The translations under genes were made by a program, and so were the position numbers. A stretch of 5,727 nucleotides of DNA from a virus: the IMG/VR virus record IMGVR_UViG_3300013947_000018, positions 1 to 5,727 of that record, one strand, 5' to 3'. Positions 1,736-5,719 of this stretch are shown here, one piece after another (position 1 is the stretch's first letter; every line of letters starts with the position of its first letter). Under the pieces are notes generated by a model that ran no database searches, was not told the origin of the DNA, and saw only the letters and a program-made list of their open reading frames with translations.

Positions 1736-1803
1736 GGTTTTTTTTGCGTATGCGAAAAAAATTTTGAGTTCGGCACAGGTTGCCCGCCGCAGGCGAGTTT
1801 TCA

Positions 1804-1834
1804 ACACTTTCAACATTTCAACAAGTTTTCAACA
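1804..1834. repeat. 31-nt direct repeat, copy A (acactttcaacatttcaacaagttttcaaca).
   Basis: It matches 1868-1898 at 30/31 positions (c to t at position 26). The period is 64 nt. Confidence 0.9.
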
Positions 1835-1840
1835 TAAATA

Positions 1841-1860
1841 TGCACAAAGGCTTTTGTGCA
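1841..1860. other. Perfect hairpin/palindrome TGCACAAA-GGCT-TTTGTGCA, centred between the two 31-nt repeats.
   Basis: The 8-bp stem is 1841-1848 paired with 1853-1860, and the 4-nt loop is 1849-1852. All pairs are Watson-Crick. Confidence 0.8.
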
Positions 1861-1867
1861 ATTTGCT

Positions 1868-1898
1868 ACACTTTCAACATTTCAACAAGTTTTTAACA
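1868..1898. repeat. 31-nt direct repeat, copy B (acactttcaacatttcaacaagtttttaaca).
   Basis: 30/31 identity to 1804-1834. Confidence 0.9.
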
Positions 1899-2010
1899 AA
1901 ACTTTCAACATGAAAATTCTTTAGAATTTTACGCTTTAACGTTCATTTTTAGTGGTTTTCAACTTTTTCACATACACTACTACTACGACTACAACAAGTT
2001 AGAAAAATAT

Positions 2011-2057
2011 TGCGCGCGCGCGCACGTGCGCGCTTCGTGCGCGTGTGCGCGTGCGCT
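2011..2057. repeat. Alternating purine-pyrimidine (CG/TG)n tract, Z-DNA-prone, that can fold into a long hairpin.
   Basis: 2011-2033 (tgcgcgcgcgcgcacgtgcgcgc) is 23 nt of perfect R/Y alternation. 2036-2056 (cgtgcgcgtgtgcgcgtgcgc) is 21 nt of the same. Only tt separates them. 2018-2033 is a 16-nt perfect palindrome (gcgcgcacgtgcgcgc). 2014-2033 can pair with 2037-2056. The tract sits in an otherwise AT-rich spacer and is flanked on both sides by AAATAT. Confidence 0.9.
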
Positions 2058-2115: not shown

Positions 2116-3135
2116 TTAGAGAATTCCACGTTTTTTTGATGATTTTTTAATTACTCGTTCTTTAGTCTTTAGTTCGTTCCAGTAATCATGGTTTTCATAT
2201 TTTAATCGGCTTTCTTCGATTAGTTTTCTTTGCCTTTCGCGTTTGATTTCCCACAGTCTTTGTGGGTTTTCCTGTTCCATCATTTTTTCGTAGTATCTTG
2301 GTATCTGTGCTCTTTTTCCGTTGCTACACTGTATATAGCCTTTATTCCAGATTTCTTCTTTGTGTTTTTGGTAGTATTCATCTCCAAGCCCCGGTTTTAG
2401 GCTCATGCATGCAAATGGCTTTGGTTGTCCCAATTCGTAATATACATTTGCTTTTTCACCGTTAAACTCGTACATTTTTTTGGTTACATATCCCGCTACA
2501 TACCTGTATGTTTCCGGTACTGCCTGTGCAATTTGAATATTGCCCATGCCCCATAGATTAGACATCCATTTACTTGTGAAATATCCGTTGTGTCTGGTTT
2601 TGTAGAGATGTTTTAGGTCTGTTGGTTTCCAACCATATAAGATCATGTGATAGTGTGGTCTTGCTGTTTGTTCTCCGTACTCTCCTGCACAGAAATAACG
2701 TAATTTTCCCTTGCTGGCTTTCCTGAGGCGTTTTAGGAATTTTTGAATGTCTGTATACAGTAGAATTTGAACCGCGTCAGGCGCTTTGCTAGAGCCATTC
2801 CAGACGTATTGCGCTTTTCGCACTATTTCGCCTGTTTTAAGTATCATTCCCGGCACGTGTTCATCATCGTATGTTAGAGTGATAAACCATACTTCATCCG
2901 GTGTGTAGTTCCGTGCTTCTAGTTCTATTCTTGTTGTCCAATCTTCCCGCTGTCTGATTCTGCATCCGATGCATTGCCCACACGGAATTAGCATTACTCT
3001 TTGATTGTACATTACATCTTCATATTTTAGCTGTTTTCCGGATAATTCAGAAAAGCGGGCAAGTGTATACACCCGCCCGCTGATTTCTTTGTTTTCCGGG
3101 TTGTACAGCCTGATTAAAGGCTTGTAACAACTCAT
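2116..3135 (-). CDS. VP4: Replication initiation protein VP4: HUH rolling-circle endonuclease, phiX174 gpA family, 339 aa.
   Basis: Microvirus Rep motifs are present. These are PCGQCIGCR (Cys cluster), FITLTYDD (motif 1), PHYHMILYG (HUH motif, with H161 and H163 at 2655..2647) and YRYVAGYVTKK (paired catalytic tyrosines Y-x-x-x-Y, 2508..2476; compare phiX174 YVAKYVNK). The start overlaps the VP2 stop as ATGA (3135..3132). Confidence 0.95.
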   Translation of the reverse strand: MSCYKPLIRLYNPENKEISGRVYTLARFSELSGKQLKYEDVMYNQRVMLIPCGQCIGCRIRQREDWTTRIELEARNYTPDEVWFITLTYDDEHVPGMILKTGEIVRKAQYVWNGSSKAPDAVQILLYTDIQKFLKRLRKASKGKLRYFCAGEYGEQTARPHYHMILYGWKPTDLKHLYKTRHNGYFTSKWMSNLWGMGNIQIAQAVPETYRYVAGYVTKKMYEFNGEKANVYYELGQPKPFACMSLKPGLGDEYYQKHKEEIWNKGYIQCSNGKRAQIPRYYEKMMEQENPQRLWEIKRERQRKLIEESRLKYENHDYWNELKTKERVIKKSSKKRGIL

Positions 3136-4013
3136 TTTCCGTATTTCCCCCTAAGTTTGATTCCTGCTTTCATTCCTTCATTCAAGGCGAGTGATGTTGG
3201 TAAGCTTATTCCCGTTTTTCCTGATAAGTTTGCCGCTTTTTGCGTTGTCTCCATGCCTTTTTTGATTCCACCCTTTACGGCTCCACCGATGTCTTTGCCG
3301 ATTTCGCTTAGTGCTTCGGATAGTCCTTTTGCTGACATGTGTGTTTCACTTTGCATTTTATTCCAGCTTTGTGCCGCGTTGTACCAGTCTGATTCGCTCC
3401 AACTTTGTGCGCTGTATGAATTTGGAACAAATCCGCTTGCTCTACTTACTCCTAGTGCACTACTCGATGTTAGCCCCATACTTGCACCGCTGATTGTGCC
3501 GGCGCTCCCGCCCGGTGTGCTTGCTCCGCCGTTTGCGAATGCTAGAATTGGATTAAGTCCGGCCGCTTTCATGTCTTCTACGGCTCTTTGATAGCTCGTG
3601 TTTGACATTTTTTCCTGCCATTCTCGATTTGCTAGCGCTTCCGCACTGTTGTAGTTCATTGCCACACTATTTTCGATGTGATTATATATGCCTTGCATGA
3701 GTGCTCCAAGCGTATTGTATCCCATTTGCATTAGTGTTGCTCTCATGTTGTTTTTTACTTGGTTTTGTCCTTCCGTGTTTTGGTAATTGTACGCATTGTT
3801 TAGCCATTCTTCGATTTGTTTATCGTTTGTTCCGCTTGTGCTCCCGCTTCTGCTTGATCCACCGCCCTGCTGTGTACTTCCACCTGAGCTTTGCGAACTT
3901 CCTTCTTGTCCCCAGTTGCCGAACGCTTGCCCAAGGCTTCCGATTGCACTTCCTACGGTTCCTACGGTGCTTGCGATTGCTCCAATTGTCGCTAGCGTTT
4001 CTGTGATTGCCAT
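3132..4013 (-). CDS. VP2: Minor capsid / DNA pilot protein VP2, 293 aa.
   Basis: The conserved core NREWQEKMSNTSYQRAVEDMKAAGLNPILAF is the hallmark microvirus VP2 block (T-x-Y-Q-R ... D-M-K-x-A-G-L-N-P). The N-terminus is hydrophobic and glycine-striped, followed by a Gly/Ser/Gln low-complexity linker. The gene lies directly after VP1. Confidence 0.9.
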   Translation of the reverse strand: MAITETLATIGAIASTVGTVGSAIGSLGQAFGNWGQEGSSQSSGGSTQQGGGSSRSGSTSGTNDKQIEEWLNNAYNYQNTEGQNQVKNNMRATLMQMGYNTLGALMQGIYNHIENSVAMNYNSAEALANREWQEKMSNTSYQRAVEDMKAAGLNPILAFANGGASTPGGSAGTISGASMGLTSSSALGVSRASGFVPNSYSAQSWSESDWYNAAQSWNKMQSETHMSAKGLSEALSEIGKDIGGAVKGGIKKGMETTQKAANLSGKTGISLPTSLALNEGMKAGIKLRGKYGK

Positions 4014-4051: not shown

Positions 4052-5719
4052 TTAGATTTTGTCGAGACCCGGCACGCTGTAAAGTGGCATTACTCGCGTT
4101 GTTTTGTTGCTGATTTGGATCCCGCCAAAGAATTGCGGTTCATCCTGTACGATTAGCGTTCTTGCAATTTCGGTTTTGCCTTCGCTCATCCATTCCTGTG
4201 ACAGTGTCGGCACGGTCGAATAGTTGTCTCCATAGTGCCAGAAGTCTAGTGTCCCTTCTGCATTGCTTCGCATTTTTCCGCTGATTCGGTTCGGCTTCAT
4301 GCGGTAATCTGCCCATGCTTCTTGATAACCAAATGTTTCCTCGTCAGTCGTATTACCTGTGAGCATGATCTCTTTCTTCTTAACAGGCTGTTCGCCCAGA
4401 TTAGCAAACTGTGGCACATAGTAGTCCAGTCTGTCTCTACGGCTCCACATGCGTTCCAGTCCCTGCTGATAGCTCCGATTATGACGTACACACATTACGC
4501 CGATGATCCATCCATGTTCTTCGAAGCTCTTCGTGAAACTGCTTTCGTTGATGGGTGTTACTGACATTGCACCAGTTTCGCCAATAGGTGTATTGGTTTC
4601 TGTGTTCGCCGCACTAGTCTGTACAATCTGATTCATATTTACATGGTAGCGACCGCCTCCCAGATATTCCGGAATCTGTACAGTTTTATCGCTGATTTCG
4701 GTACCCCAGATTGCCCGAATTTGTTCACGGTACCGACTGCCACCGCGTGCTAGTGCTTCATAGTAGTGCTGTACTGCGATTGCCTGCCGTAGCTCATTGA
4801 TTGTCACCGCGTTTACACTGCTGAGGTCTGTTGCTAGATGTCCACTGATAGCGGTTCCTGCTTTGTTTAGATAATTGACTCGATTCCATCCGTCCAAACT
4901 ATTTACATACCATGTCTGAAGTGTTCCATCACCGCTTAAATTAGGTTTATTTGCGCCGATCCAATATTGGTTATTTTCAAGTGAGCCGTCTTCATTCTCA
5001 TAGATTACGTTTGCGTTTCCCGTCATTGGGATATTAACCTCCGGTCCTCGCTGAGGATACGGCAGACAGCTCGTGAAATAGTCGTGGAATTTGTTGACAG
5101 GCAGACAGCGACCGCCGGTGATTGCGTTCGTTAGAATGTCGTCCATGGATGAGTATTTGCTGTCTGTGTAGTCTACATTTGTGTCGCTTTTAATCCAGGT
5201 TGCTTCATTTTCTACGTTCTGATCTCTGAAAAATTCATTCCAGATCATAACGTATGCTCTGACTGGCAGCGCGTTTACTTCAAAAGTACTGGTGCTGTTT
5301 TTTTCGCCTAGGATGTGCGTCGGTACGCCCATGTAGTCCAATATGCTTCCCGTTCTCGGGTTATCTTCATCGTCGACGGGTTCTGCATAAACGGCATTAG
5401 GGGCGATTTTTGTAGGCTGTCGGATTGTGATTGTTGGTACTTTATATTCTCTTTCTGGCATCCACGGTGTTCCTTCTACTTCTCCCATGAACTGCTTCCA
5501 GTGTTCCCACAAGATGCGGTTAGGCGCATAGAAGTAATAGATGTCAATAAAACTGTCATCCATTACCGGGTATTTCGGTGTAGTCATTCGGATGATCGCG
5601 CTTGTGTTTACTCGGAATGTGTCATTGGGAAGTACTTCATCAACGTAGAACGGAATCAGTTCGCCGGAGTCGAATGTGGTTAAAATGGTCTGGTCTCGCT
5701 TGAATGTGCTACGGGACAT
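4052..5719 (-). CDS. VP1: Major capsid protein VP1 (Microviridae F-protein family). 555 aa in the window, about 571 aa if started at the wrap-around ATG (window position 118).
   Basis: The N-terminal block RSTFKRDQ..TTFDSGELIPFYVDEVLPNDTF...MTTPKYPVMDDSFIDIYYFYAPNRILWEHW matches the canonical microvirus capsid signature (RS-F ... G-x-L-I-P ... E-V-L-P-G-D-T ... F-F-V-P-x-R-x-x-W). The size is typical of gokushovirus VP1. The reading frame stays open to the window end (5727) and continues at 79-118. Confidence 0.95.
   Translation of the reverse strand: MSRSTFKRDQTILTTFDSGELIPFYVDEVLPNDTFRVNTSAIIRMTTPKYPVMDDSFIDIYYFYAPNRILWEHWKQFMGEVEGTPWMPEREYKVPTITIRQPTKIAPNAVYAEPVDDEDNPRTGSILDYMGVPTHILGEKNSTSTFEVNALPVRAYVMIWNEFFRDQNVENEATWIKSDTNVDYTDSKYSSMDDILTNAITGGRCLPVNKFHDYFTSCLPYPQRGPEVNIPMTGNANVIYENEDGSLENNQYWIGANKPNLSGDGTLQTWYVNSLDGWNRVNYLNKAGTAISGHLATDLSSVNAVTINELRQAIAVQHYYEALARGGSRYREQIRAIWGTEISDKTVQIPEYLGGGRYHVNMNQIVQTSAANTETNTPIGETGAMSVTPINESSFTKSFEEHGWIIGVMCVRHNRSYQQGLERMWSRRDRLDYYVPQFANLGEQPVKKKEIMLTGNTTDEETFGYQEAWADYRMKPNRISGKMRSNAEGTLDFWHYGDNYSTVPTLSQEWMSEGKTEIARTLIVQDEPQFFGGIQISNKTTRVMPLYSVPGLDKI

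Follow-up and report, generated by a model that had tools for sequence, protein, structure and literature searches.

The window analysed here, by which we mean the whole 5727-nucleotide stretch of IMG/VR virus record IMGVR_UViG_3300013947_000018, comprises a complete circular genome (5649 nucleotides, nt) and a terminal redundancy of 78 nt. It belongs to a gut gokushovirus, and the GenBank records nearest to it come from gokushoviruses of the human and pig gut (~75% nucleotide identity). All recognisable genes of the window are carried by the minus strand. They are the VP1 capsid gene (4052–5719), an unassigned open reading frame at 3132–4013 without a Pfam match, which is presumably VP2 as annotated in related records, the gene of the HUH replication initiator (Rep) VP4 at 2116–3135 (Pfam PF23343, E = 1.9e-17), and the genes of an M15 peptidase, VP5 and the VP3 scaffold. 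Past the 3′ end of VP4 lies the element studied here, an alternating (CG/TG)n tract at 2011–2057 that can fold into a hairpin and that we tentatively read as a replication signal.

The alternating tract in the window

Strict purine/pyrimidine alternation was found at 2011–2033 (23 nt) and at 2036–2056 (21 nt), with TT between the two runs, and the longest alternating run elsewhere in the window is 12 nt. The base content of 2011–2057 is G20 C17 T9 A1, and a perfect 16-nt palindrome, GCGCGCACGTGCGCGC, occupies 2018–2033. A preliminary description of this stretch, made from the letters alone, had reported the two runs and the palindrome and had paired 2014–2033 with 2037–2056 through 16 Watson-Crick and four G-T pairs. 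Our analysis recovered all of these, with the G-T pairs exactly at the positions named, as well as the AAATAT sequences said to flank the tract (2005–2010 and 2060–2065), which are not conserved among the relatives. The minimum-energy register is a 2-nt slide of this pairing. In it a 5′ arm (2012–2032) and a 3′ arm (2036–2056) of the plus strand form 21 pairs, 17 of them Watson-Crick and four G-T, and the loop CTT (2033–2035) is the out-of-phase break between the runs.

Folding of both strands as DNA gave −26.8 kcal/mol for the plus strand (z-score −3.3) and −20.6 kcal/mol for the minus strand (z-score −0.75). As RNA, the plus strand folded at −44.7 kcal/mol and the minus, gene-sense strand at −32.2 kcal/mol. 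This agrees with the earlier statement that the fold is stabler on the plus strand, and the asymmetry of G-T over C-A pairs behind it was seen in at least 54 variants. No Rfam covariance model matched the tract region, the sole match in the window being sub-threshold and located elsewhere. The tract had also been placed directly downstream of a terminator; the position is right, the two being 16 nt apart, but the supposed terminator is better read as a replication nick hairpin, as described below.

Conservation and covariation of the arms

We compared 85 related loci, made up of GenBank relatives and 80 IMG/VR relatives (VP4 amino-acid identity 78–81%). The two-part tract was present at the same place in 75 of them, as 54 distinct sequence versions, and among the GenBank relatives KX513877, MG945430, MG945233 and MG945162 each have a tract of different sequence there. 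The remaining loci are mostly contigs that stop ahead of or within the tract. It was also found in at least 10 distant gokushoviruses, whose VP1 identity is only 34–38%. The preliminary description had suggested searching other microviruses for such runs, and the search was positive in both close and distant genomes. None of the cultured reference gokushoviruses checked has the tract.

Two of the related genomes depart from this pattern. L079 has no tract at all at 2161–2215, though its VP4 is 96.7% identical to that of L057, and in L038 the tract is truncated so that just 6 nt of one arm are left (~3312–3340). Either the element is dispensable in these genomes, or they are defective or misassembled. 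Some assemblies also break at the tract: contigs L013 and L030 end within it, and in the 8.8-kb L029 the microvirus sequence gives way to a portal/Mu-F region of a tailed phage at the very point where the tract is expected to begin (~4125 onward). This indicates that the tract hairpin is a hotspot of assembly breaks and chimeras.

The alternating runs of the relatives are 18–28 nt long and the arms change in length by 2-nt steps, while a non-alternating, out-of-phase centre of 0–8 nt was kept in 54 out of 54 variants, with loops such as CTT, TTT, CTAT, CTA, TCTA and similar. The flanks are variable, and other hairpin cassettes have been inserted on either side of the tract, so that it behaves as an autonomous module. 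Wherever VP4 was located, the tract lies at or just past its 3′ end, except in L113 and L147, where it is upstream of VP4. In GC-rich distant gokushoviruses the tract is inside the VP4 3′ end, in frame, and codes for a C-terminal tail T(R/H)ARAR(N/S)A(H/R)(A/T)(H/R)A (L104 4465–4502, L148 2283–2318, and L195, L140, L197, L209, L320 and L325). In this group a DNA hairpin and a protein tail are dual-coded.

The arms of the 54 variants were then compared in their best register, against shuffles that keep the alternation and the composition within each arm; the compared sequences are related by descent, and the shuffle-based figures therefore overstate their independence. Read on the gene-sense strand, there were 801 C-G and 93 A-T pairs, together with 205 C-A pairs (~18%), which are G-T on the opposite strand, and 17 G-T pairs, which are A-C there. 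A gene-sense T stood opposite A in 93 out of 110 cases (85%), whereas 27% was expected. Watson-Crick pairs numbered 894, against 798 ± 8 in the shuffles, none of 300 reaching the observed value. True mismatches on the T-rich strand were three-fold depleted (17 observed, 52 ± 4.5 shuffled), whereas those on the gene-sense strand were not depleted at all (205 observed, ~203 shuffled). The mean DNA fold energy was −24.8 kcal/mol for the T-rich strand and −19.2 kcal/mol for the gene-sense strand, with z-scores of −1.34 and −0.02, respectively, against the same kind of shuffles.

A second alignment of 44 distinct sequences and 16 pairs, which included the distant lineages, gave similar results. Standard pairs including G-T filled 99.6% of the cells on the T-rich (plus) strand compared with 96.8% after shuffling (0 of 500 shuffles), and sliding the register lowered this to 90.7% at −2 and 94.8% at +2. 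Changes on both arms were found at six pairs, in 35 cells, against 6.4 ± 3.0 in the shuffles (0 of 500). The covariation, and the depletion of mismatches on one strand, indicate that the arms are selected to pair and that the non-Watson-Crick pairs tolerated are those which are G-T on the window plus strand, as far as sequence comparison can tell.

The probable nick hairpin, strand polarity and the neighbouring module

A second hairpin lies on the plus strand at 2073–2103, with stem AGCCCAGTAC/GTACTGGGCT and loop TTACTTGATAG. It is probably the nick site of VP4, the predicted nick being CTTG|ATA between 2089 and 2090. A conserved TGACACC box follows at 2107–2113, 14–15 nt 3′ of CTTGAT, which gives the plus-strand order AGCCCAGTAC-TTACTTGATAG-GTACTGGGCT-AGG-TGACACC. 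The loop was invariant in 49 variants and the stem varied with compensation. The sequence ACTTGATA in this hairpin matches the phiX174 origin, CAACTTG|ATATT. It also matches the CTTGATA core contained in the pC194 origin, as printed in PMC7072734.

The shared design, a stem of 10–16 bp, a loop containing CTTGAT and a TGACAC(C) 14–15 nt further on, was found once in each genome concerned: EC6098, Chp2, several microviruses from GenBank and the distant genomes that carry the tract. Two scans of the collection with exact motifs gave at least 121 gokushovirus-like genomes with the motif in a hairpin. Among the 121 matches listed, the hairpin is on the coding strand in 104 (sense-type) and on the non-coding strand in 17 (antisense-type); in EC6098 and Chp2 it is on the coding strand, and in the clade of the window on the non-coding strand. 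Searches with relaxed motifs did not find it in L113, L147, phiMH2K or PQ007319. Since the CTTGATA hairpin of this clade is on the non-coding strand, the strand that is nicked, displaced and packaged is probably the window plus strand, antisense to all genes.

The tract follows the polarity of the nick hairpin. Wherever a nick motif was located in a genome with the tract, this motif and the TG-rich strand of the tract, the one that tolerates wobble pairs, are on the same strand, and there the tract invariably precedes the predicted nick on the 5′ side. The sense-type genomes L351 and L365 obey the same rule, their tract being on the coding strand, 8–24 nt from the nick. The distance between tract and nick is 33 nt in the window, 21–198 nt in 73 clade members, and 1013–1143 nt in eight GC-rich distant genomes. 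Among the matches listed, 10 out of the 17 antisense-type genomes carry the tract but only 2 out of the 104 sense-type ones. We put forward, as a possibility that falls somewhat short of an even chance, that the clade of the window and ~14% of the sampled gokushoviruses (again among the matches listed) are negative-sense Microviridae, in which the tract would serve as the complementary-strand origin of the viral strand, gained or kept mainly in the antisense lineages.

The base composition agrees with this polarity. At four-fold degenerate sites of the window genes VP1, VP2, VP4, peptidase and VP3, the coding strand has 0.37–0.62 A and 0.075–0.16 T, whereas in EC6098 T makes up 0.40–0.47. The AT skew at these sites is +0.44 to +0.78 in the window genes and −0.5 to −0.9 in EC6098 and four other microviruses. 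The A-rich, T-poor pattern of the window is thus the mirror image of the T-richness seen in EC6098, Chp2, SpV4 and most microviruses. Among single-stranded DNA (ssDNA) phages, which favour NNT codons, T-richness is the norm (PMC3278643). A positive skew was found in 17 out of 17 antisense-type genomes listed. But the coding strand is A-rich also in 28 of the 104 listed sense-type genomes and in the cultured phiMH2K, so we dropped composition as a proof of the packaged strand; it supports antisense polarity without proving it.

Another candidate for the nick site, the box CTACTACTACGACTACAACAAGTT, resembles TACTACG/AC of pMV158 and AACTTG of phiX, but was rejected: its G is not conserved, the module that contains it is inverted in five relatives, and the hairpin at 2073–2103 is a far better candidate. 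A motif comparison with six distant genomes was uninformative, the CTACTAC match in MH572493 lying within a gene.

On its other side the tract adjoins a box, CACTACTACTACGACTACAACAAGTTAG, at 1976–2003 on the plus strand, which is kept in nearly all relatives and is part of the inverted module described below. Beyond it there is an iteron cluster at 1799–1910 (plus strand) with seven exact copies of TTTCAACA within a 64-nt tandem duplication. A palindrome, TGCACAAAGGCTTTTGTGCA (1841–1860), separates the TTTCAACA copies, and the iteron region was also noted at 1957–1972 on the plus strand. In distant gokushoviruses the related iterons GGTTGCCCAC and GTGGAAAAC come after the tract. The TTTCAACA/TTTTCCACA repeats were considered as DnaA boxes (TTWTNCACA, at most one mismatch), but 17 matches against 13.8 expected is not significant.

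The CTAC/AAGTT box and the TTTCAACA iterons form a module of 206–260 nt, limited by the tract on one side and by ACGCGCACAGCGC on the other. Five relatives have this module in the opposite orientation with respect to VP4. Its coordinates are 1796–2001 in the window, and 2181–2386 in L007, 1541–1746 in L028, 4221–4424 in L041, 2271–2476 in L053 and ~2213–2424 in L079, where it is inverted. The recombination breakpoints of the module fall in the tract region. A dynamic inversion switch is disfavoured because the inverted modules resemble each other (~90% alike, 81–93%) more than the modules of their nearest VP4 relatives (75–80%). This makes one old inversion, which would have spread between backbones by recombination, more likely.

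The region accumulates further hairpin modules. A cassette GTACGGAGAACGTTCTACCCCTTCCCCTATTCGCTACGCTTCAAGGGG... stands between the tract and the CTAC box in some relatives (L003 4960–5016, L004, L048, L069, L082 and L086), and other relatives carry a GGCGCT...AGCGCC hairpin cassette. Many relatives have a second, 14-nt alternating inverted repeat, TGCACGTATGTGCA, in the VP5/VP3 region, for example at 3742–3755 in L007 and 5563–5576 in L010; on the coding strand this is ~1.4 kb beyond the tract, and an exact copy was not noticed in the window.

Outside the hairpin element, a sigma-70-like promoter, TTGACT-17-TAAAAT, at 1707–1735 on the minus strand serves the peptidase-VP5-VP3 genes, and a strong GAGGTG ribosome-binding site near 1630 (minus strand) precedes the peptidase gene. 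This promoter and Shine-Dalgarno sequence fit a Firmicute-like host, and gokushovirus M15 peptidases have been connected to Faecalibacterium (Roux et al. 2012). An attachment-site role was looked for through prophage context, and a scan of GTDB genomes with VP4 gave nothing.

A possible complementary-strand origin and its alternatives

The conservation of the tract, the covariation of its arms, its strand polarity and its position relative to the nick motif are all observed. The reading that fits them best is that of a single-strand replication signal, namely a complementary-strand (minus) origin, to which we give close to, though less than, an even chance. A priming hairpin of this kind was among the functions listed in the preliminary description, which had called the minus strand simply coding and had missed that it works only if the plus strand is the viral strand, as the nick hairpin now suggests. 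From sequence comparison we infer CTTGATA as the nick site, the plus strand as the viral strand, and priming as the function.

The element would be a strand-specific hairpin, with an alternating CG/TG stem of 20–24 bp and a loop of 3–8 nt, on the strand nicked by Rep, which is the T-rich plus strand in the window. Lying 33 nt 5′ of the nick, it would be among the last sequences displaced during rolling-circle replication, and it would be present in the packaged single strand. There the stem could form a duplex stub resistant to SSB (a protein that binds single-stranded DNA), at which host priming, through PriA/primase or RNA polymerase, would begin the conversion of the viral ssDNA to the double strand. 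An element that is strand- and orientation-specific, modular, occasionally dispensable and upstream of the nick has the profile of a complementary-strand origin.

Hairpins that start the conversion of ssDNA to double strand are known as the oric of G4, the n′ site of phiX174, the minus origin of Ff phages and the single-strand origins (sso) of rolling-circle plasmids. The Ff (M13/f1) intergenic region contains a packaging hairpin, the minus-origin hairpins B and C, and the plus-origin nick hairpin D. As in Ff, the space from the last gene to the next operon contains, on the putative viral strand of the window, a cluster of hairpins, among them a strand-specific one directly 5′ of the nick hairpin, with repeats on the far side, which in Ff bind the initiator or host factors. 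Unlike the Ff minus-origin hairpins, which mimic a −35/−10 promoter, the window stem is pure CG/TG without such boxes, and a promoter scan of the plus strand at the tract gave nothing. Moreover, Ff is filamentous with an unrelated Rep (gpII), and the window element is seemingly on the antisense strand.

The G4 oric (primase) and the phiX174 n′/PAS site (PriA) belong to the same virus family, and their packaged-strand hairpins resist SSB and recruit host priming, as proposed here for the tract. They share no sequence similarity with it, neither has an alternating CG tract, and both sites are far from the plus origin. G4 has three hairpins and a fixed CTG. Primase of the G4 type uses a triplet at a fixed short distance from the hairpin, CTG, or CTA in Firmicutes; the window does have a CTA 1 nt 3′ of the stem (2058–2060), which is not conserved in the relatives.

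The sso elements of plasmids are located just upstream of the nick site. Like ssoA, ssoU, ssoT and ssoW, the tract is an imperfect palindrome, specific in strand and orientation, near and upstream of the nick, and like them it appears non-essential, cassette-like and exchanged by recombination, being absent or truncated in rare genomes (L079 and L038), modular, and placed at a recombination boundary. If CTTG|ATA is the nick, the tract shares with ssoA a strand-specific fold that lies upstream of the nick and forms on the displaced strand. It differs in that sso elements are 130–200 nt long with RS_B and CS-6 (TAGCGT), while the tract is a simple hairpin of 46 nt with CTT, TTT or CTAT loops. 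As the defining motifs of the known minus-origin families are absent, the tract works, on our reading, like these families without belonging to any of them.

Several observations weigh against a complementary-strand origin. The classical signatures are missing, with neither CS-6 (TAGCGT/A) nor RS_B in the tract loops or in 2005–2063 and no −35/−10 mimic in the stem, and the CTA triplet is not kept in the 3′ flanks of relatives. The tract is missing from most gokushoviruses among the matches listed and from all cultured ones checked, so it cannot be a family-wide universal minus origin. In the GC-rich distant group a protein-level constraint is mixed in with that on the DNA, and A-rich coding strands are not confined to antisense-type genomes. 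There were also no transversions in the arms (~44 positions) among the 54 variants, though the neighbouring nick hairpin has compensated ones, and pairing alone does not explain this lack; the alternation is either constrained in itself, or frozen because only transitions pass via a G-T intermediate. Finally, if the coding strand mutates strongly from G to A, this bias alone could give much of the excess of C-A over G-T, and the nick hairpin has mismatches of the same kind.

The composition of the tract, which follows the same rule as known d(CG)n/d(TG)n Z-DNA tracts, raises the alternative that it acts in the double-stranded form, where the CG/TG blocks would flip to Z-DNA, absorb ~8 superhelical turns and tune origin melting, transcription or recombination. 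We regard this as unlikely. The potential proposed in the preliminary description is real by a rough estimate, which predicts that the B-to-Z transition in a 5.6-kb circle becomes favourable at a superhelical density (sigma) near −0.045 and is unfavourable when sigma is −0.03. Both runs (23 and 21 nt) exceed the 12 bp rich in CG/TG expected of a Z tract, alternation is strict, its steps being exclusively CG, TG/CA or, rarely, TA, none of the variants has a transversion, and the tract neighbours the origin and the iterons, ~280 nt upstream of the promoter. However, Z-DNA requires neither complementarity between the blocks nor strand polarity, and the tract strongly shows both. It could not select TG on one strand, since CA and TG are the same duplex step, and the two runs are not a single in-phase block, the central phase break conserved in all variants penalising one continuous Z tract. 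A Z-DNA switch thus leaves the arm covariation, the polarity and the centre unexplained; proneness to Z-DNA may be a second property of the tract or a by-product of evolution via G-T intermediates only. The cruciform switch suggested along with it seems energetically unfavourable by an equally rough estimate, two hairpins costing ~38 kcal/mol relative to the duplex against a relief of −31.6 kcal/mol at sigma −0.06. We consider it quite improbable that the tract is instead a recognition hairpin with which VP4 finds the nick site, or terminates there, on ssDNA, comparable to the inverted repeat that conjugative oriT sites have 5′ of nic, or to the hairpins found subterminally in IS608. Its location on the nick-bearing strand, invariably to the 5′ side of the predicted nick, its genetic linkage to VP4 in all lineages, and a nick merely 8–33 nt away in the window, L351 and L365 would suit such a role. 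But the spacing from hairpin to cleavage site is not fixed: in the clade it varies over 21–198 nt, with unrelated hairpin cassettes in between, and it grows to ~1 kb among the distant genomes. The tract is also missing from L079 and, among the matches listed, from most gokushoviruses that have this nick hairpin.

An element of the gene-sense transcript, a 3′ stem-loop that would back VP4 termination or protect the mRNA 3′ end, is very unlikely. It would account for the position of the tract at the 3′ end of VP4, or just past it, throughout the lineages with VP4 placed, save L113 and L147, where the tract is upstream of VP4. The window coding strand also has AATATTTTTC after the tract, which a terminator scan picks up, and the gene-sense RNA still folds stably, as given above. 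This strand is nevertheless the poorly paired one, with 18% C-A and no depletion relative to the shuffles, and polarity in L351 and L365 tracks the nick strand. An intrinsic terminator would consist of a GC-rich sense hairpin and a U run, and the T-rich tail is peculiar to the window, as the distant lineages and most of the relatives have no U-rich tail; the barrier reinforcing termination that had been suggested earlier is unlikely for the same reasons. That the tract has no dedicated function, being an expandable CG microsatellite or palindrome kept by slippage and gene conversion and promoting recombination or inversion nearby, seems to us rather improbable, even with arms that vary in 2-nt steps (18–28 nt), a location at recombination breakpoints and at the edge of the module inverted in five relatives, and its loss in L079 and truncation in L038. 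A neutral GC tract should decay fast in a genome of 44% GC under strong A/T pressure, yet it was retained in 75 out of 85 relatives and in distant lineages, with compensatory changes and a three-fold depletion of true mismatches on one strand. A chimeric join or low-complexity misassembly, which the preliminary description had asked to be excluded, is scarcely credible. The tract does provoke assembly breaks (L013, L030) and one chimera (L029), but diverged and compensated versions are present in many IMG/VR datasets and in independent GenBank records of human and pig faecal origin, which refutes an artefact.

Gokushoviruses are the dominant ssDNA phages in the guts of animals and in many waters, yet the signals that act in cis in their replication are essentially uncharted. 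Our searches of the open literature found no account of a gokushovirus origin, of a (CG/TG)n tract, or of a negative-sense microvirus, in line with the earlier remark that no such tract was known in microviruses. Two elements are offered here: a candidate Rep nick hairpin common across the subfamily and, on the strand of this hairpin, an accessory GC hairpin. In practice, the tract breaks assemblies and seeds chimeras, and the nick hairpin could serve as a rational zero point and strand convention in the annotation of microvirus genomes. The orientation of the genes relative to the origin appears to have been flipped in some lineages. If this is true, the textbook view of an mRNA-sense virion strand in the Microviridae would fail for part of the family, and replication and transcription would run head-on in the antisense-type phages.

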